In this document: piece by piece, positions 6,789-37,283 of the stretch
Layout: every line of letters begins with the position of its first letter
Numbering within the stretch: the first letter of the stretch is position 1
DNA from: Clostridia bacterium
GTDB taxonomy: Bacteria; Bacillota; Clostridia; Oscillospirales; Acutalibacteraceae
Direction: 5' to 3'
DNA length: 43,970 nucleotides
Assembly (NCBI GenBank): GCA_017418905.1
Contig: JAFOMO010000025.1
Location: 1-43,970 of the forward strand
Notes under the pieces: generated by a model
Database searches by the model: none
The model's input: the letters and a program-made list of their open reading frames with translations, nothing else
Told to the model about the DNA's origin: nothing
Program-made: the position numbers and the translations under genes

Positions 6789-6859
6789 TAATATGCCTCC
6801 CTTTGAACCGTTGATACATATAAAACGGATAAAAAAAATCAACAGCTCTTTATTTTTTT

Positions 6860-6888
6860 ATTATATCATAATCAATTATAAAACACAA
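6860..6888 (-). promoter_or_regulatory. promoter of the flavodiiron gene with an AT-rich near-palindrome in the spacer
   Basis: Minus-strand reading: TTGTGT (6888-6883), 17 nt, TGATATAAT (-10 at 6865-6860). The spacer contains TTATAATTGATTATGA (6881-6866). Confidence 0.4.
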
Positions 6889-6934
6889 CAATAATTTATA
6901 CAGTATATTAAGAAATACATTTTTTTCGGTATTA

Positions 6935-7531
6935 TCATTCATAACTTTCTTCCACAAAAACAGTCTTTGTTTGGATATGTCGCTTAACCTTAATATCCGG
7001 ATTTACGGATGTAAGCTTTTTAGCTAAGTTCTCCCATTCGGACTGATAGTAATAATCCGAATGATAAAACAATATATCCATTCCGTTTTCAATTAAATAA
7101 TAATCCCATTCTATATCAGTTACTGCCCCTGTATATATGATCTTGACAATCTTCATACCATTCAGAGAAGAAATAGGCAGTACTCCTACCCTATTGAGAC
7201 CAAATATAAATTTATCTCCTATAAGGATTCCGTTTTTAAAATATGTCTCGGCATGAGTAAAATCATCTTCCGCCAGCTTTAATATACCTCGTTCTTTAAG
7301 CAGTTTCATATTCCTCTTATATTCTTTAAGTTGATAAGCATAAGAAAAATAATATTTATATACAACTATGATCCAAAGCACTATATCAATAACCACCAGC
7401 AAAGGCAGATTAGTAAAACTATCCTTTTTAAAAACGAGTAAGTATGTTAGGAATATCGGAAGGATCAAGGAAAATCCTATCTTAACGGAAGCACTGCCTA
7501 TATCGGGCTTTAAATATTTTTGTAATGTCAT
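6935..7531 (-). CDS. 2-TM membrane protein of unknown function, paralogue-like to 4410-4985
   Basis: 198 aa with two hydrophobic helices, then YFKNGILIGDKFIFG...EWENLAKKLTSVNPDIKV. Confidence 0.55.
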   Translation of the reverse strand: MTLQKYLKPDIGSASVKIGFSLILPIFLTYLLVFKKDSFTNLPLLVVIDIVLWIIVVYKYYFSYAYQLKEYKRNMKLLKERGILKLAEDDFTHAETYFKNGILIGDKFIFGLNRVGVLPISSLNGMKIVKIIYTGAVTDIEWDYYLIENGMDILFYHSDYYYQSEWENLAKKLTSVNPDIKVKRHIQTKTVFVEESYE

Positions 7532-10595: not shown

Positions 10596-10739
10596 TTTCT
10601 GCAATTCAAGCGAAGAATAATTTGTTCTGTATTAGGCACAATACCGCAGGAATACTGACGTATTTCAAGGTATTGTAACGACACACAGGGCAAATTAGGC
10701 GAGCATGAAAGTGCAAGTTATTTCTTGACGATTCCTTAG
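10596..10739 (+). repeat. intergenic structured repeat, copy A (family 1, 5'-truncated), sense strand +
   Basis: Positions 10601-10739 are the reverse complement of 36785-36923 with 134/139 identical bases. The copy contains the shared core CGCAGGAATACTGACGTATTTCAAGG (10645-10670) inside the hairpin 10637-10677. Confidence 0.85.
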
Positions 10740-12834: not shown

Positions 12835-13363
12835 TCTTATACGTTTTAATGAAATTCTTTGGTTCAATTCCTCGTTTTATACATTCAAGAAATATCTTTG
12901 CACAAGCTATGCTGTCACTGTCTGCTTTGTGATGATCCAATTCAATATTCAGGTAATCGCAAAGAATATTCAGCTTATGATTTTCAAGCGTTGGAAAGCA
13001 TTTTTTGCTCATACGAACAGTACAGGCGTAATCAAAATCTGATATATCTTTAATGTTATATGCATTTATACATTTTGCGAGTACACCCATATCAAATGTG
13101 GCATTGTGGGCTATCAGAATTCCATTTTTAAAAATAGGCTCAAGCTCTTTCCACACTGCCTTGAAATTTGGAGAATTTTTTACCTTTTCTTTGTTGATCC
13201 CTGTAAGCTCGATATTGAATGAAGAAAAATATGTTTCGGGGTTTACAAGAGATGAATATGTATCAACTATTTTTCCGTTTTCTATAATTGCCGCTCCTAT
13301 TGAGCTTATACGATCGTTTCTGGCGTTTGGTGTTTCTACATCAAACGCTATATATCTTTTCAT
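12827..13363 (-). CDS. stand-alone DEDDh 3'-5' exonuclease, PolC-exo/DnaQ-like
   Basis: ExoI FDVET, ExoII AHNATFDMGVL, ExoIII HHKADSDSIA. The block NHKLNILCDYLNIELDHH is colinear with the PolC exonuclease domain. The start overlaps the upstream stop (ATGA at 13360-13363). Confidence 0.8.
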   Translation of the reverse strand: MKRYIAFDVETPNARNDRISSIGAAIIENGKIVDTYSSLVNPETYFSSFNIELTGINKEKVKNSPNFKAVWKELEPIFKNGILIAHNATFDMGVLAKCINAYNIKDISDFDYACTVRMSKKCFPTLENHKLNILCDYLNIELDHHKADSDSIACAKIFLECIKRGIEPKNFIKTYKIN

Positions 13364-15942
13364 TTAAGATTCCTCTTTTCTTTGTTTTCAGATAGTATAG
13401 TCATTATACTTGCTTCGGCAGTTCTAACCTCTGACAGAAACGTCTGTGAAGGTACTCTCAATGCACCGCTTCCAAGTATTATCAGCTGTTCCATACCGTC
13501 TGATGTGACTACTCTTACCCTATTGTTCTTTGCGAGCTTATAAGCGGCTTTTTCAATGTATGTATCTGCTGTTTCGGCTTCTTTTGTATACACTATCGTT
13601 ATTCCGCCTATACGTTCTGTTTCGCCCTTGCCGCCCTTGACCTTATATGCGTCAAACACAAGTATGAGTCTGCACCCCTTATACCCCTGATAATTGCAAA
13701 GTATGTCAATAAGTCTGTCTCTTGCGGAAGAAATATCTGCTCTGGCAAGACTTTTCAACTCTTCCCAAGAAAAGATCACGTTGTAGCCGTCTACAAGAAG
13801 ATAGTCGTTACCGTCAAAGCCCGATTTTCCCGGACGCTTGTATTTCTCGAAATTTTCCGACTGATACTTCTTTGCGGAAACAGCGGTATTTTTCGGTTTT
13901 ACAGCACCGTATGTTCTCTCGAATATTTGCATTAATTCTTTATCTGAAGCTTGCGGTCGGCTTTTGTATTCGGACTCAATATTATCCTCTGCAACTTCAT
14001 CGCCGTTTTCTTTCAGTACATAGTCAAGGTGCATATACTTCTCGGTTTCCTGCCAATTTACGGTAAACCCTGCACCGTGAGAACAAAACACCGAGTCGGC
14101 AGTGTTTTCTATATCGCTGTCGGGATCATAACCGATATTCTCTATAACTTCGTCTGAATTATGACAAGGCTCATAACCGTTGAGTATGCACATAAGTCTG
14201 CCCTTGCCCTTGGTATACTTCAACACCTCACTGTGATAATTCCTCATACAATAAACAGGAGCTTTTCCTGTCAATACGGAAATATCACCTTTAATTACAG
14301 GGGGCTCAAAGCTTCCGTACATCTTCTGAATATCAGACATTGCTCTTCCTGTATTTTCCGAGGGTACTTCAAGGGTAAACTCATACACCGGCTCTAACAG
14401 AACGCTTTCAGCTTTTCTCAATCCGTGACGAACTGCACGATATACCGCCTGTCTGAAATCTCCTCCTTCGGTGTGCTTTAAGTGAGCTTTTCCCGTAAGG
14501 AGCGTTATTTCTATATCGGTAACCGGCGAACCTGTCAATACGCCCTTATGCGTTCTCTCGCTGATGTTTGTAAGAATAAGCCTTTGCCAGTTTCTGTTTA
14601 GAACATCTTCACTGCAAATGGAATTTATTATAATTCCACTATCTTTTTTACCCGGTTTAAGCCTTAAATGCACCTCGGCATAATGACGGAGCGGCTCAAA
14701 ATGACCTACTCCCTCTACTGTTGAAGCGATCGTTTCTTTATATATAATATTGCCTTGTCCGAAAGCAACTGAAATTCCGAACTTATCTTTAATAAGTGCT
14801 TTCAAGACTTCAAGCTGTATTTCTCCCATTAGCTGAATCTGTATCTCTCCTAAGGTATCGTTCCACAATACATTTAACATAGGGTCTTGATGTTCGAGTA
14901 TTCTGAGCTTATCGAGCAGCTTATGAGAATCCACTCCCTGAGGCGGTATGATCCGATATGTCAAAACAGGCGATAATACAGGCAAAGACGAGTCGTTTTC
15001 AATTCCAAGACCCTCTCCCGAACGTGCGCCCGTAATTCCTGTTACAGCACAGATAGTGCCTGCGTCTGCGGATTCCGTCCGGGTATACTTATTACCCGAA
15101 TATATGCGTATCTGATTTACCTTTTCACCTTCAGGGCTGTTTTTGGTTTTAAGTATTTGCCGAACTTGCAGACTGCCGCCTGTTATCTTCATAAATGTTA
15201 AAGGGGCGTTTTGTTCGTCCTGCGATATTTTATAGACCTTTGCGCCGAACTCAGAGGGATAATCGGGCATTTTTGTATATTTACAGAGAATATTTACAAG
15301 TGTATCTATACCCTCAAATTTCAGTGCAGAACCAAAAACACAGGGAAATACTCCTCTTTTTGATATTTCTTCGGTGATAGTATTTGAACCCACTGTAAAA
15401 TTTTCGTTATACTCTTCAAACAGATCATCACTGCACAAGGCTATATTTTCGAAGAAAATATAGCTGTTATCATTTGTAAAATCTACAATGTTGTCGCTTA
15501 AATTAAACTTTAAGCTGCCCAATACTGTATTGTTATCTTTATCTGTAAGATCCATTTTGTTTACGAACAGAAAACAAGGAATATTATACTTTTTCAATAA
15601 TTTCCAAAGAGTGGAAGTATGACTTTGAACGCCTTCTGTTCCGCTTATTACAAGAACGGCATAATCAAGCACTTGAAGTGTTCGCTCGGTTTCGGCAGAA
15701 AAATCAATATGTCCCGGAGTATCGACAAGTGTTATTTCGGTATCATCATATTTTAAAACGGCTTGTTTTGAGAATATTGTTATGCCCCTTTTCCGTTCAA
15801 GCTCATAATTATCTAAAAAAGATGTTCCGTGATCTACTCTTCCAAGCTTGTTGATACTGCCGCTGCTGTATAATAATGCCTCTGATAATGTCGTTTTGCC
15901 TGAGTCAACGTGTGCAAGTATTCCTACCGATATTCTTTTCAT
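13360..15942 (-). CDS. Tet(M)/EF-G-like translational GTPase fused to a C-terminal Rae1/YacP-type NYN ribonuclease domain
   Basis: G1 AHVDSGKT, G3 DTPGH, G4 NKMD, with colinearity to ribosomal-protection/EF-G-type factors over about 640 aa. Residues 713-860 (nt 13363-13806) read DYLLVDGYNVIF..LVFDAYKVKG..YTKEAETADTYIEKAA..VVTSDGMEQLIILGSGALRV, which matches YacP/Rae1. Confidence 0.85.
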   Translation of the reverse strand: MKRISVGILAHVDSGKTTLSEALLYSSGSINKLGRVDHGTSFLDNYELERKRGITIFSKQAVLKYDDTEITLVDTPGHIDFSAETERTLQVLDYAVLVISGTEGVQSHTSTLWKLLKKYNIPCFLFVNKMDLTDKDNNTVLGSLKFNLSDNIVDFTNDNSYIFFENIALCSDDLFEEYNENFTVGSNTITEEISKRGVFPCVFGSALKFEGIDTLVNILCKYTKMPDYPSEFGAKVYKISQDEQNAPLTFMKITGGSLQVRQILKTKNSPEGEKVNQIRIYSGNKYTRTESADAGTICAVTGITGARSGEGLGIENDSSLPVLSPVLTYRIIPPQGVDSHKLLDKLRILEHQDPMLNVLWNDTLGEIQIQLMGEIQLEVLKALIKDKFGISVAFGQGNIIYKETIASTVEGVGHFEPLRHYAEVHLRLKPGKKDSGIIINSICSEDVLNRNWQRLILTNISERTHKGVLTGSPVTDIEITLLTGKAHLKHTEGGDFRQAVYRAVRHGLRKAESVLLEPVYEFTLEVPSENTGRAMSDIQKMYGSFEPPVIKGDISVLTGKAPVYCMRNYHSEVLKYTKGKGRLMCILNGYEPCHNSDEVIENIGYDPDSDIENTADSVFCSHGAGFTVNWQETEKYMHLDYVLKENGDEVAEDNIESEYKSRPQASDKELMQIFERTYGAVKPKNTAVSAKKYQSENFEKYKRPGKSGFDGNDYLLVDGYNVIFSWEELKSLARADISSARDRLIDILCNYQGYKGCRLILVFDAYKVKGGKGETERIGGITIVYTKEAETADTYIEKAAYKLAKNNRVRVVTSDGMEQLIILGSGALRVPSQTFLSEVRTAEASIMTILSENKEKRNLK

Positions 15943-16030
15943 TTTTAAATGCCCCTATCAAAGTAATAGAATTATTGTATCATAATATCGGGAATAATTC
16001 ATTGATTTTTTATGAATACATAATACCGCT

Positions 16031-16173
16031 CTCAAATTAAAATCTTTAAGTCTTTTCGGTCTAATTTCCGCAATACATCGTCATCGACCTTGAAATACGA
16101 CAGTATTCCTGCAGTCTCTTCCTCGTCTTGCGAAAATTATACTCGAAAATGCTTATAAAGCTTTTAATCTGAG
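16031..16173 (-). repeat. intergenic structured repeat, copy C (family 2), sense strand -
   Basis: About 85% identical to 37089-37232. Terminal inverted arms are 16031-16058 and 16144-16173. The shared core lies at 16088-16114 inside the hairpin 16069-16132. Confidence 0.8.
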
Positions 16174-16181
16174 ATCAGTAT

Positions 16182-16220
16182 AAAAACAGCTCCGTTTTTG
16201 AGGAACGGAGTTGTTTTGTT
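16182..16220. terminator. bidirectional intrinsic terminator after the HAD hydrolase gene
   Basis: Stem CTCCGTT / AACGGAG (16190-16196 / 16204-16210), flanked by an A-run and TTGTTTTGTT. Confidence 0.55.
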
Positions 16221-19639: not shown

Positions 19640-20845
19640 TTATAATAGTTCCAAACAGGTTTCTTTGAATGTTTTTATTATAAACTCAACCTCTTCATCT
19701 GTAAGCAGCGAATAAAGAGGAAGAGATACTTCGTTTTTATACATATTATATGCTTCGGGGTAATCTTTAATATCAAACCCTAACTGCTTATATGCAGTAT
19801 GCATCGGCAACGGCTTATAGTGTACGTTTGTAGCAACACCCTTTTCAAGCATTCTGTCCATAAATCGGTTGCGGAAGTTTTCATCCTTTTCTGTAAAGCG
19901 CACCATGTACAAATGCATACTTGATCCTAAGCTTGTAAAGTGGTCTATCGATTCAACTCCGTTTATTTCCGAAAAAGCTTTATCATACCTTTTAACTATA
20001 CTTCTTCTCTTTGATAGTATTTCGTCTGTTCTGGAAAGCTGAACCAAACCTATTGAGGCTAATATATCAGTCATATTGTGCTTATACCCTGTATAAACAA
20101 TGTCATACTCCCAGAATGGTTTTTCTCCCTCGGGCTTAAAGGCTCTGTCTTGTCCATGACAGGCAAGAAGTGCAAGCTGTTTTTTCAAAGCTTTTCCGTC
20201 TATTCCCTCTATTGGTTTAAAGGCAAGAATACCGCCTTCGGCAGTGGTAAAGTTCTTTACTGCATGAAAGGAAAAGCTTGTAAAATCTGCAAGCTCACCT
20301 GAACGCTTTCCGTCAGCACGTTCTGCCATAAATGAATGTGCACCGTCTGCAACTATCGGTATTCTGCCGATAGCCTTTTGCAGATCGTTTTTCGGCTTAA
20401 AAACAGTTTTCTTGCTTTCAGATATTTCTAAAAGCTTGTCATAATCGCACAATACACCGCCCAGATCAACAGGTACTATCGCCTTTGTTTTTGATGTGAC
20501 TGCTTTCTCTGCTGCCTCGTATGAGATATGGAACGTACCGGGTTCGACATCTACAATTACGGGTGTTGCTCCGACGTGTTTTATAACGCTTGCGGAGGCT
20601 GTGTATGTATAAGCAGGTACAATGACCTCGTCGCCCTCGCCTATACCGAGAAGTCTTAATGCCATTTCATGGCACGCTGTTGCGGAGTTCATACAAGCTG
20701 TATACGGAACATGACACAACTGCGCCGCTTTCTGTGACAGCTCTTCTGTTTTTGGTCCTGTGGTTATCCAGGACGACTTCATTGTTTCAACTACTGCGTC
20801 TATTTCTGCCTGACCTATGTCCGGCGGTGAAAACGGTATTTTCAT
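19640..20845 (-). CDS. DegT/DnrJ/EryC1/StrS-family PLP-dependent aminotransferase
   Basis: MKIPFSPPDIGQAEIDAV... The family-typical lysine block is SFSFHAVKNFTTAEGG. 401 aa. Confidence 0.85.
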   Translation of the reverse strand: MKIPFSPPDIGQAEIDAVVETMKSSWITTGPKTEELSQKAAQLCHVPYTACMNSATACHEMALRLLGIGEGDEVIVPAYTYTASASVIKHVGATPVIVDVEPGTFHISYEAAEKAVTSKTKAIVPVDLGGVLCDYDKLLEISESKKTVFKPKNDLQKAIGRIPIVADGAHSFMAERADGKRSGELADFTSFSFHAVKNFTTAEGGILAFKPIEGIDGKALKKQLALLACHGQDRAFKPEGEKPFWEYDIVYTGYKHNMTDILASIGLVQLSRTDEILSKRRSIVKRYDKAFSEINGVESIDHFTSLGSSMHLYMVRFTEKDENFRNRFMDRMLEKGVATNVHYKPLPMHTAYKQLGFDIKDYPEAYNMYKNEVSLPLYSLLTDEEVEFIIKTFKETCLELL

Positions 20846-33267: not shown

Positions 33268-34683
33268 TTAGAAATTAAAGGCTGCACCGGGTCTGTTGCC
33301 AAATCCGCCGGGACCTCCGCCGAAGCCACCGCCCATTCCGCCGGGACCTCCGCCGCCCATCATTGACTGCGGAATAGAATCTACCTGTTCACCGTTAATG
33401 ATGATCGTACCGCCCGTGTATGTTGCTGTGCCGTCACAATCGAATGATTCAGATGGAGCTTGTGCAGGGTACGTTATCGTAACAGTACCTCCGGAAACTA
33501 CTATATTTCCGTTTGAGTCGATACAGTCAACATCACCGCCGCTCATAGTTATAGTTACGCTGCCGCCTGTGATCTCAACTGTGGGAGTACCGATAGACTT
33601 GCTCTTCTGTGAAGCATTTATACCATCGTCTGTTGCAGTAACACTTACAGTTCCATTGTTTATCTGAATATATGTGCTTTCAATACCCTCATTTGAGGTA
33701 ATATTGATAATACCACCGTCTATCTGCGTATAGGTCGTACCTTGAATACCGTCCGAGCTTGCTTTGATGTTCAGAGTACCGCCCGTAATATAGATATATC
33801 CTTTTGTATCGTCGTCATCATTTTCACAATGCAATCCGTCCTTAGAGGAATTTATTGTAAATGTGCCGTCATATATTCTTATAGAGTCATTAGCCTCTAT
33901 CGCATCGCTCGTACTTGTGATATTGTATGTGCCGCCTGTGATCTTCAGATCATCTTTGCACGAAATACCGTTGTCGGAAGAACTGATATTCAGTGTACCT
34001 AATCCGTTAAGTACAATATCATCTTTTGAAAAGATAACAGCATCTGTATTTGTATCACTGTCTGCTGTGAACGTGCCTGTAACTGTGAGGGTGTTTTCGC
34101 TCTCAGTCGTGGTGATAAAGCATTTATCGGCTGATACCACATATATAGCAGGCATGCTTTCATTTGTGATGGAAACACCGTCAAAAACAAGCTGAACCTT
34201 TTCTGTGCTTTCTGTATTTACCTTTATTGTACAGTTTTTAGCCGTACCGCTTATAATGTAAACACCCTCTTCGGTTATCTCTATCGTTTTGCCGTCTGAT
34301 ACAGTGAGGGCTTTTGCGTCTTTTGTATCTGCTGTCTGAGAAAGATCTCTCGAACTGAACATATCTGTTGTATCTATTACACCTGATGTATTAAGAGTTA
34401 TCTCTGTTGACTTTTCGGAGCTTGTTTCTGTTTTTGTCTCTGTTTTGCTCTCGCTTTGCTTTGAAGCACTGTCTTTAGATGTTGTGTTCTCCGTGCTTGA
34501 TGAAGAAGCGTTGCTGTTTGTCGTGTCGGCTGTGTTGGCTGTAATGCTTTCTGTATAGCTTTCTGATGATACCTTTGTACTGTTGTCGGTTACACTGCTT
34601 GTATCTTTTACGGCTGAACAGCCTGTAAGGAACGTACCTATTAGAATAGCTGATAATACCATTTTTATAGAAGTCTTTTTCAT
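33268..34683 (-). CDS. lipoprotein with a beta-helix carbohydrate-binding-type domain (Cthe_2159-like, from memory) and a Gly-rich C-terminal tail
   Basis: Lipobox LTGC and a Ser/Thr-rich linker. The repeat pattern is ITEEGVYIISGT...IKVNT...KVQLVFDGVSITNESMPAIYV..ADKCFITT, with repeated ...GGT..I.S..DGI... turns. The tail reads MMGGGGPGGMGGGFGGGPGGFGNRPG. The start is probably ATG 34683, 8 nt after GAGG. Confidence 0.7.
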   Translation of the reverse strand: MKKTSIKMVLSAILIGTFLTGCSAVKDTSSVTDNSTKVSSESYTESITANTADTTNSNASSSSTENTTSKDSASKQSESKTETKTETSSEKSTEITLNTSGVIDTTDMFSSRDLSQTADTKDAKALTVSDGKTIEITEEGVYIISGTAKNCTIKVNTESTEKVQLVFDGVSITNESMPAIYVVSADKCFITTTESENTLTVTGTFTADSDTNTDAVIFSKDDIVLNGLGTLNISSSDNGISCKDDLKITGGTYNITSTSDAIEANDSIRIYDGTFTINSSKDGLHCENDDDDTKGYIYITGGTLNIKASSDGIQGTTYTQIDGGIINITSNEGIESTYIQINNGTVSVTATDDGINASQKSKSIGTPTVEITGGSVTITMSGGDVDCIDSNGNIVVSGGTVTITYPAQAPSESFDCDGTATYTGGTIIINGEQVDSIPQSMMGGGGPGGMGGGFGGGPGGFGNRPGAAFNF

Positions 34684-34724
34684 GATCATTACCTCGTTTC
34701 TTTGTTTCTTTATTTGTTGTCTGT

Positions 34725-34785: not shown

Positions 34786-34990
34786 TAAAGAGTGAAATCT
34801 ATAAATAAAAATCCACTCAAAATACCGATCTGTAAAAAAACGGTATAAGAGTGGAACAATACCTGAATAATAAGGACACTTTTCCGAAAAGTAGATAATT
34901 GTAAAATTTATTGGTGTGAAAATTTTTGAACTAAATATTTCGGAAAAATGCCCTTATCAACAAAATTTTAAGGACAGTAGAGTTACTGTC

Positions 34991-35160
34991 TTAAGGACAC
35001 CTCTAAAAACCTCACGCCGCCCATCTGCACCGTATCTTCAGCCGTCATCTTGCACAAAAAATCTTGACATACGTCAGTATGCCTGCGATTTCATTGTGCA
35101 ACCTGCCGACTAAATCTACGGCACATCTGAACAACGGCAGGTTTTTAGAGATGCCCTTAA
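34991..35160 (-). repeat. intergenic structured repeat, copy E (divergent), sense strand -
   Basis: 21-nt inverted termini at 34991-35011 and 35140-35160 (19/21 complementary). The core variant lies at 35062-35088 inside the 8-bp-stem hairpin 35050-35101. A second hairpin lies at 35101-35142. Confidence 0.7.
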
Positions 35161-35318: not shown

Positions 35319-36128
35319 ATGAAACGAACATTATCTGTACTACTTGTGGACGATGATTTAACAACCTGCGACAGAATTAAAAGAATAGCAGAATCGTATA
35401 ATGATATACAATTGATAGCCTCGGTAAACAATGCCGAAGATGCTGTTAATTGTGTAAAAGAACAAAAACCCGATGCTATGATCTTAGACTTGGAGCTTCA
35501 TCACGGAAAAGGCAACGGATTTGACGTTCTGAAAGAGATAAAAACACTTGGTTTGTGTTCTCCTTTTATTCTTATCACCACATACAACACAAGCAGTACT
35601 ACTTACGAAATTGCAAGAAGACTCGGCGCTGATTTTATTATGTATAAAAAACAGGCTGAATACAGTGATGAAACTCCGATCAATTTTCTGAGAATGCTTT
35701 CCGATGAAATATTGTTCTGTGAAAGAAAGCCGAAAAAAGTTGTTGACAATAAGCAAGCTGTTTATACGGATCATTATCATGAATCGGAATATTCCGAAAA
35801 TGAAATCGATGATCTGATAAACGATGAGCTTATCAAAATCGGTATTAACCCAAAGGTTTTGGGATTCAAGTATTTAAAGGAAGCTATCAGAATTACCGTT
35901 AGCAACCCTACGCATAATATTTCTGCTAATATAGGGAAAAAGTTTGACAAATCTTCAGGAAGCGTTGAACGAGCTATGCAGAATGCTATTGAGCGTGCCT
36001 GGGAGCTTACCGATCTTGATGTATTGGCACAAAATTATACCGCAAGGATCAATTCTTCAAAAGGTGTTCCTACAATTCTGGAATTTATCTACTTTTATGC
36101 AAATAAGGTCAAACAAATAATCAGATGA
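35319..36128 (+). CDS. Spo0A-like response regulator (receiver domain plus Spo0A_C-type DNA-binding domain), divergent
   Basis: The receiver reads VLLVDDD...[20 protein letters not shown]. The C-terminus reads [19 protein letters not shown]...[24 protein letters not shown]...[18 protein letters not shown]. This is colinear with the Spo0A effector domain (IGVPAHIKGYLYLREAI...[24 protein letters not shown]...KPTNSEFIAMVADKL). Confidence 0.75.
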   Translation: [269 protein letters not shown]

Positions 36129-36784: not shown

Positions 36785-36947
36785 CTAAGGAATCGTCAAG
36801 AAATAACTTGCACTTTCATGCTCGCCTCATTTGCCCTGTGTGTCGTCACAATACCTTGAAATACGTCAGTATTCCTGCGGTATTGTGCCTAACACAGAAC
36901 AAATTATTCTTCGCCTGAACTGCACAACTTATTTCTTGACAATTCCT
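36785..36947 (-). repeat. intergenic structured repeat, copy B (family 1, full length), sense strand -
   Basis: 25-27-nt inverted termini at 36788-36812 and 36921-36947 (2 mismatches, 1 bulge). The hairpin 36847-36887 carries the shared core. 134/139 bases are identical to the reverse complement of 10601-10739. Confidence 0.85.
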
Positions 36948-37088
36948 AATTCTAAACTACTATTATATTTTATCATTTTGTTTGCTACACTGTAAACAAT
37001 AATTGAGAGAATAAATATTTTTCTGCTATTTGTATATGTTTTCCCACTTCAATTTATACAAATCAAACAAACTTTATACTCATACTAC

Positions 37089-37232
37089 TATTCAATAAAA
37101 AACTTTAAATCTTTACTGTCTAATTTCCGCAATACGTCGTCATCGTCCTTGAAATACGTCAATATTCCTGCGTCCTCTTCCTCGTCTTGCGAAAATTATC
37201 CTCGTAAATCTTTTAAAGCTTTTTATTGAATA
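37089..37232 (-). repeat. intergenic structured repeat, copy D (family 2), sense strand -
   Basis: About 28-nt inverted termini at 37089-37116 and 37204-37232. The core lies at 37147-37172 inside the hairpin 37128-37191. About 85% identical to copy C. Confidence 0.8.
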
Positions 37233-37240
37233 TTAGTATC

Positions 37241-37283
37241 AAAAAAAAAGATCCCAACAATAGCCGGGATCTTTTATTTTTTT
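37241..37283. terminator. bidirectional intrinsic terminator after polC
   Basis: A9 run, stem GATCCC / GGGATC (37250-37255 / 37266-37271), then TTTTATTTTTTT. Confidence 0.6.

Follow-up and report, generated by a model that had tools for sequence, protein, structure and literature searches.

The 43,970-nt stretch of Clostridia bacterium DNA analysed here (contig JAFOMO010000025.1, positions 1 to 43,970; hereafter, the window) carries five copies, A to E, of an intergenic repeat built around a short, hairpin-forming core, and the locus raises the question of whether these repeats serve the genes beside them or are mobile DNA. The first-pass annotation of the window favoured a cis-acting leader or protein-binding RNA, and named a MITE-like mobile repeat as the alternative. 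The present analysis reverses this preference. The five sequences are very probably copies of a non-autonomous miniature inverted-repeat transposable element (MITE) inserted between genes of this gut or rumen bacterium, and we hold with high confidence that the copies in the window are recent insertions of such a selfish element. The mobile reading is borne out by filled and empty sites, TA duplication, terminal inverted repeats (TIRs), dispersal, the lack of a linked gene, and decay, whereas the leader reading is contradicted by random orientation, an observation that the first-pass annotation itself had named as refuting, and by the finding that none of the copies recurs at the orthologous site in sister species.

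The core was searched on the whole window with up to three mismatches, with 100 dinucleotide shuffles as the control. As had been claimed, the 26-nt core was found five times and always between open reading frames (ORFs); the five matches carry 0-3 mismatches, and none is expected from the shuffles. The ends first assigned to the cores of copies C (16114) and E (35088) proved to be one base too long, and the revised ends are given in Table 1. A covariance model built from 115 relatives, and run with its filters off, recovered the same five copies at 64.8-80.7 bits, with the next match at 14.3 bits. Each copy forms a single long, imperfect hairpin whose arms pair end to end as terminal inverted repeats, with the core at the apex and a full length of 152-164 nt. 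The element ends read AGG...CCT or CTA...TAG in all subfamilies. Copies A and B are 96% identical, and copies C and D are 87% identical. The elements are non-coding, and the ORFs that overlap relatives are spurious and lie only within the elements.

Table 1. Positions of the five element copies in the window and of core-less mini-derivatives at other loci
Feature	Location	Strand	Core	Description
Copy A	~10598-10736	+	10645-10670	~139 nt, 5'-truncated, A/B subfamily; 3' end ...CGATTCCT, then TA
Copy C	16026-16178	-	16088-16113	153 nt, full-length, C/D subfamily; TA on both flanks
Copy E	34994-35157	-	35062-35087	164 nt, full-length, AGGGCATCTC...GAGGTGTCCT; duplicated TA at 34992-34993 and 35158-35159
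Copy B	36788-36947	-	36854-36879	160 nt, full-length, A/B subfamily; flanks TT and TA
Copy D	37085-37236	-	37147-37172	152 nt, full-length, C/D subfamily; TA on both flanks
Mini-derivatives	L016:2772; L075:3207, 585-630; L099:2356; L107:3860, 3945, 6567			Core-less

Mobility was assessed by comparison with sister species of ~80% nucleotide identity, in which gene order is conserved. All five copies of the window were found to be missing from the orthologous spacers. The first-pass annotation had suggested looking for empty sites and target duplications, and copy E provides both: two sister species show a clean empty site, CTGCC-TTA-C/T-AGCAACC, and the filled site, CTGTC-TTA[AGG...CCT]TA-AAGCAACC, contains the 164-nt element together with a duplicated TA. 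The vanZ-dnaE spacer of L150 and L151 lacks both copy B and copy D, and measures 237 nt in the sister species versus 552 nt in the window. Copy C is missing as a 161-nt block in the sister species L152 and L154, and is also missing in L155, a syntenic sister-species contig whose orthologous SulP spacer lacks copy A. The reverse case was also observed, in that L155 has an E-family insertion of its own (~20070-20306) at the place orthologous to the empty window spacer 6842-6935. In strains sharing at least 99% identity with the window, every contig that covers the site of copy C, D, or E was found to carry it, copy C being kept in 10 strains, and the site of copy B is likewise filled, though its apex is lost in L119, L121, and L125. 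The insertions are fixed within the species and absent from the same sites in sister species.

Two further observations belong to these comparisons. In L155, a GC-rich insert of ~66 nt interrupts the core of the E-family copy after CGC; the insert contains two small hairpins, CAGTCTGCCGGTGGCAGACG and GTTGCCGCAAGGCAAC, and may be another tiny, nested element. Downstream of this copy, at a distance of 40 nt, there is a possible solo end (GGGTGCCCTA). In addition, a different MITE of ~182 nt, with the TIR CCTGAATCCGTGAAAC, a direct TAAATA flank, and no core, is present at L122:3426-3613 and at L119 ~725-913; its empty site lies at window ~34926-34931, and the two filled strains are otherwise 99% identical to the window.

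The distribution of the element was scanned in one genome per species with the pattern GCAGGNATAYTGNCGTATNTCAAG, and all counts on relatives given in this paper (orientation, flanks, structure, and polarity) are among the matches listed by that scan. At least 122 matches were found, in at least 118 stretches of at least 56 assemblies. The carriers are named Ruminococcus, Acutalibacteraceae, Oscillospiraceae, Ruminococcaceae, or Clostridia, with Ruminococcus flavefaciens FD-1, Clostridiales bacterium NK3B98, and Ruminococcaceae bacterium P7 as isolates among them; the closest named relative of the window is an Acutalibacteraceae metagenome-assembled genome (MAG). Viral records with the element were limited to 8 viral contigs and a few unannotated gut-virome records, a plasmid search gave no match, and copy E had no match at blastn sensitivity in 5,426 E. 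coli genomes. No paper with the core sequence or a description of the family was found in the literature, and a large MITE survey names Ruminococcus and Faecalibacterium only in passing (PMC11602168).

Members of the family measure ~150-180 bp and are inserted between genes at TA, often in a TTAA context, and in either orientation. The TA flanks of copies C, D, and E recur in cluster 1, where all 10 of 10 loci read TA-GGGTGTATC...GATACACCC-TA and the flanks are otherwise unrelated, and in the AGGCAAC subfamily (sf1), many copies of which show the junctions TTA-AGGCAAC...GTTGCCT-TAA, with TA on both sides. A few copies have TT/TT instead, three relatives carrying such matching non-TA flanks. 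In the window, copies C and D begin 0-3 nt from the T-tract of an intrinsic terminator (16179-16212 and 37237-37275, the latter belonging to the dnaE terminator at 37275-37246), and the insertion of copy E directly adjoins a small hairpin, GACAGT...ACTGTC, followed by TTA; these positions may reflect a preference for TA sites beside stem-loops.

Every copy had been reported to point toward the next downstream gene. This holds in the window, where it is trivial for copies A and E, which lie in divergent spacers, and where B, C, and D run in the direction of the next gene. Across genomes the rule breaks down: 24 copies are co-directional with the flanking ORFs and 24 anti-directional, with 18 in divergent and 7 in convergent spacers. 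No protein gene was found to travel with the elements among the neighbouring ORFs of these matches. Neighbour proteins that recur belong only to common families (ABC transporters, histidine kinases, leucine-rich-repeat proteins, and similar), and no Y1 transposase, reverse transcriptase, or recurrent transposase-like gene was seen among the neighbours.

Bacterial MITEs have been defined as elements of 100-200 bp with TIRs, TA termini, target duplication, and long stem-loop transcripts (PMC2229807). The elements described here are of this size, also within a wider range of about 50-800 bp used for such elements, and non-coding, possess TIRs, show a target-site duplication when the filled and empty sites of copy E are compared, and occur as dispersed copies with presence/absence differences. 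They form a previously undescribed superfamily of TA-duplicating, non-autonomous MITEs in the Oscillospirales (Acutalibacteraceae, Ruminococcus, and Oscillospiraceae).

The structure of the tip was assessed on 115 distinct copies, with 500 shuffles and slid controls; the fixed positions of the search pattern are not countable as conserved. The inner hairpin of the original description, GGAAUAC-UGAC-GUAUUUC, is present, as are the compensatory double change in copy E (A-U to C-G), the change in copy D (C to U, giving a U-G pair), and a G-U pair that is invariant in the copies. The conserved loop bases and compensated stems extend to the 115 copies, and define a tip motif consisting of a Y-G closing pair, a GCA/AA internal loop, a 7-bp stem with the invariant G-U, and a UGNC loop. 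Paired cells amounted to 94.7%, compared with 79.3% in the shuffles, none of which reached the observed value (0/500), and with at most 49.6% in the slid controls; the covariation score was 0.363 versus 0.105. The third stem pair is A-U in 81 sequences, C-G in 29, and U-A in 4, and the four pairs just outside the core show two-sided changes in 32-56 sequences.

In 14 by-catch variants from the same loci, the G-U was never replaced by G-C, and U-A was found only in two inverted secondary hairpins. A generic search for GCA, 7 bp, UGNC, 7 bp, and AA yielded five further hairpins, which have four quite different, GC-rich stems between them, and none in shuffles; inverted second hairpins likewise keep GCA...UGAC...AA on entirely different stems. 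The sequences quoted earlier for the outer stems are present, but the arms are not unrelated between subfamilies, as had been thought: although diverged, they are still paired through compensatory changes, and further blocks are common to them, for example AUUUUCG.../...CGGAAAU, in which the position of a U-G is also shared. Covariation of this kind does not discriminate in favour of a leader RNA, because a DNA palindrome gives the same counts.

Because the tip is asymmetric and deeply conserved, every copy has a polarity, so that a bias toward one strand can be demonstrated whatever the genomic orientation. The sense strand was predicted to be the more stable in 90 of 94 copies, with a mean of -78.8 versus -59.5 kcal/mol, and to fold better in 12 of 14 sequence clusters. 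When the two arms were aligned against each other, with both strands treated alike, 566 G-U were counted versus 278 A-C, and 885 purine-purine versus 157 pyrimidine-pyrimidine mismatches; the sense strand is purine-rich, with more G than C and more A than T. A local, transcription- or replication-linked mutation bias was considered as the source of the G-U excess and ruled out, because co- and anti-directional copies are equally asymmetric, the sense strand folding better in 24 of 24 and 23 of 23 copies, respectively. With DNA energy parameters, the sense strand is still the more stable in 93 of 98 copies, and the polarity can, therefore, not separate RNA from single-stranded DNA. The earlier proposal of an RNA read in the sense given there is upheld insofar as a folded, one-strand form is supported by the 115 copies, but RNA as the molecule is not established by this asymmetry.

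Under the MITE reading, a transposase supplied in trans would cut and paste the element, and the 2-bp duplication, mostly of TA, would be consistent with an IS630/Tc1-mariner-like, IS30-like, or IS5-subgroup enzyme. Several points weigh against this reading. The transposase is proposed rather than identified, because no autonomous partner or insertion sequence (IS) with matching ends was found in ~1 Mb of neighbourhoods; ORF clustering, Pfam scans of recurrent ORFs, and searches for inverted repeats 0.7-3.5 kb apart and for solo TIRs yielded only MITE pairs, mini-derivatives, and housekeeping genes. At copy C, the sister-species sequences have no TA at the junction, which leaves the duplication ambiguous. 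The junction of copy B is ambiguous as well: this copy and its nearest relatives are flanked by TT and TA, for which a TA duplication needs a subfamily that lost the 5' terminal A. A TA duplication is also formally indistinguishable from an insertion 3' of TTA in which the element's own end is TTA. Finally, ordinary DDE transposition of double-stranded DNA leaves the conserved centre, and the one-strand bias in wobble pairs and purine-purine mismatches, unexplained.

In an alternative reading, the elements move as single-stranded DNA, in the manner of IS200/IS605-PATE or REP/REPIN elements, with an HUH (Y1) transposase that reads the tip and inserts the element 3' of TTA without a true duplication. 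HUH enzymes read strand-specific hairpins with conserved unpaired bases and mismatches, and the hairpin described here is strand-specific, also with DNA parameters, and conserves unpaired bases and a mismatch; the junction of copy E formally fits such an insertion. This mode of transposition is, nevertheless, improbable. The three copies with matching TT/TT flanks argue for a true 2-bp duplication. A dependence on the lagging strand would be expected to produce a bias relative to replication direction, but no bias relative to gene direction, and hence to replication direction, was seen, which speaks against a replication-fork-dependent, IS200/IS605-like route. Moreover, each element is one full-length palindrome and does not have distinct hairpins at its left and right ends, ~70 nt would separate the recognised hairpin from the cleavage sites, and no Y1 gene was seen among the neighbours.

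The reading favoured at the outset, in which a structured cis-acting leader or a protein-binding RNA module controls the gene downstream, is now very improbable. The covarying stems and conserved loop bases, the enrichment of G-U pairs on one strand, and the co-orientation of copies B, C, and D with the next gene agree with it, as do promoter-like sites just upstream of two copies: TTTACA-18-TAAAAT at 36996-36967, upstream of copy B, and a site upstream of copy E, which was inserted ~20 nt downstream of a conserved -10 box. However, the copies are not gene-specific leaders, because they are absent from the orthologous spacers of sister species, are randomly oriented across genomes, are flanked by TA, have no linked gene, and decay, with loss of the core; the genes next to them are mutually unrelated. 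The first-pass annotation had recognised no named RNA family, and Rfam 15 likewise gave no match at the gathering threshold, either on the window or where the core lies in 17 loci, and only chance or terminator matches at an E-value threshold. That the elements are mobile small-RNA genes, or are copied via an RNA intermediate with the sense RNA hairpin as the functional or propagating molecule, is scarcely credible: the purine-rich sense strand with its excess of purine-purine mismatches, the frequent wobble pairs and the G and A surplus typical of structured RNA, and a polarity independent of genomic context would suit this idea, but homology between copies ends exactly at the hairpin base, so the element holds no promoter or terminator, the 2-bp TA duplication and TIRs are the signature of a DNA transposon, the neighbourhoods contain no reverse transcriptase, and we know of no bacterial precedent.

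Within the MITE reading, the tip could be accounted for if the propagating lineage, rather than each single insertion, were selected for a folded single strand of one polarity, in which the tip would serve as a recognition site for a mobilising or host protein. Such a single-strand role of the core is possible, and is put forward tentatively because of the way in which the tip is conserved, the polarity shown by the hairpin as a whole, and the occurrence of core-less derivatives only as unique decay products. A further-reaching form of this proposal is more doubtful, namely, that a folded single strand with one set polarity (a single-stranded DNA hairpin or RNA), read by a dedicated protein, is the form through which these TA-duplicating MITEs propagate or by which they are licensed. 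If correct, it would represent a recognition mode not known for TA-duplicating MITEs, and would explain why such elements are palindromic over their full length. The polarity of the copies makes an old question testable, that is, whether fully palindromic MITEs are selected as single-stranded hairpins.

The closest analogues are ERIC, Correia, and RUP. ERIC (IRU) elements of the Enterobacteriaceae are, like the present elements, intergenic, imperfect palindromes (127 bp in ERIC) with a well-conserved central inverted repeat; they are miniature mobile elements with TA termini and target-site duplication, occur in both orientations, and form a long RNA hairpin when co-transcribed (described, in part, in PMC2229807; De Gregorio et al. 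2005). The present elements are unrelated to ERIC in sequence, copy E having no match in the E. coli genomes, and the host phylum differs. The elements described here are longer (152-180 bp), have a different tip motif, and fall into many diverged subfamilies with only the tip and a few arm blocks in common. Correia (NEMIS) elements of Neisseria share a size of ~107-155 bp, TIRs, TA duplication, and hundreds of intergenic copies, and have a functional central site (for IHF), transcript hairpins that are cut by RNase III, and no known cognate transposase (PMC2229807). In contrast to Correia, the central site here behaves as a hairpin, with a covarying stem and conserved loops, rather than as a protein site in duplex DNA; each subfamily has TIRs of its own, and the elements are spread over several families of an order, not one genus. 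Like the present elements, Stowaway-type Tc1/mariner MITEs insert at TA and are small, non-autonomous, whole-element hairpins. The same features are found in RUP of Streptococcus pneumoniae, which is mobilised by IS630-Spn1 (PMC2229807). The matching IS of RUP is known from TIR similarity, whereas none was found here in the ~1 Mb searched. REP/REPIN-RAYT systems resemble the present family as dispersed, intergenic hairpins that are read as folded single strands, with an imperfect stem and some conserved unpaired bases. REPs measure 20-40 nt, carry a GTAG or CGTC head, and make no duplication, REPINs conserve the flanks and not the tip, and a RAYT gene accompanies them. None of these traits was seen in the elements described here.

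Transcription through the elements may have consequences of its own. Read-through in the sense direction, which is likely for copies E and B, would give a double-stranded RNA-like hairpin of ~60-80 bp, and a long duplex of this kind could, by analogy with reports on Correia and ERIC, alter the processing or stability of the messenger RNA. Some individual insertions, E and B among them, are located in probable 5' leaders and may change the expression of adjacent genes. Any such effect would be a side effect, and not the reason why the copies are there.

Decay was observed both in the window copies and among relatives. In strains L119, L121, and L125, the apical 77 nt of copy B (window 36835-36911, core included) are deleted between short TCGCCT direct repeats, leaving a core-less stump; this loss reflects palindrome instability, with slippage between the TCGCCT repeats. 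Decayed cores are present among relatives, together with many core-less, internally deleted mini-derivatives of 30-90 nt that keep both TIR ends (for example, TTAAGGCAACACCGCACA...TGCGGTATTGCCTTAA; Table 1). The deletion endpoints of the mini-derivatives are all different, and none was seen twice.

Composite relatives of ~270 nt were found at L006, L014 (2538-2812), L034, L042, L023, L067, and L102. They contain a second core-like hairpin in the opposite orientation, with the different stem GCA-GCAAGGC-UGAC-GCCUUGC-AA. L006 and L034 carry a perfect look-alike of a tRNA T-arm, GTGACAGGTTCGAGTCCTGTCAC, the L014 counterpart of which, GGTTCGACTCTCGCC, is part of the outer inverted repeat. A tRNA-like reading was considered for a class of ~108 nt, in which the T-arm-like hairpin GGUUCGAGUCC follows, and was rejected, as ARAGORN finds no tRNA; in L014 and L088, the GGUUCGAGUCC sequence pairs with an upstream inverted copy to form the outer arm of a ~270-nt element. 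Kissing of the UGNC tip loop with GUCA loops of side or upstream hairpins was also rejected: in L006, L019, L023, L037, and L045, the loop base at the third position shows no covariation, and only L014 fits. Consensus motifs of the K-turn, CsrA site, Spo0A box, cre, and LexA box, compared by eye, did not fit the conserved positions.

The element is of a fairly ordinary kind, but its tip hairpin motif is conserved across a bacterial order, and the interest of the family rests mainly on this order-wide tip and on the strand-specific structure. In practice, the family accounts for many contig breaks and much of the spacer-length variation in MAGs of rumen and gut Oscillospirales, and copies of the element stand at the ends of several strain contigs compared here. 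The family is usable as a marker for strain or species typing, and should be masked before structured-RNA searches are carried out in these genomes.

Other features of the window were observed in passing. The minus-strand gene at 13360-15942 encodes an 860-aa protein with EF-G-like GTPase domains (GTP_EFTU, EFG_III, EFG_IV, and EFG_C) and a C-terminal, nuclease-like NYN_YacP domain; the protein is conserved in the sister species. A Spo0A-like response regulator (Response_reg and Spo0A_C domains; 35319-36128, plus strand) is encoded divergently from a lipoprotein/two-component operon; outside the genus, even the nearest relatives of this regulator reach only 45-49% identity. Within the 473-aa ORF at 33268-34689, a short, in-frame tandem repeat at 33298-33355 (GCCnnnCCGCCGGGACCTCCGCCG-like) probably encodes a Gly/Pro-rich, low-complexity stretch.

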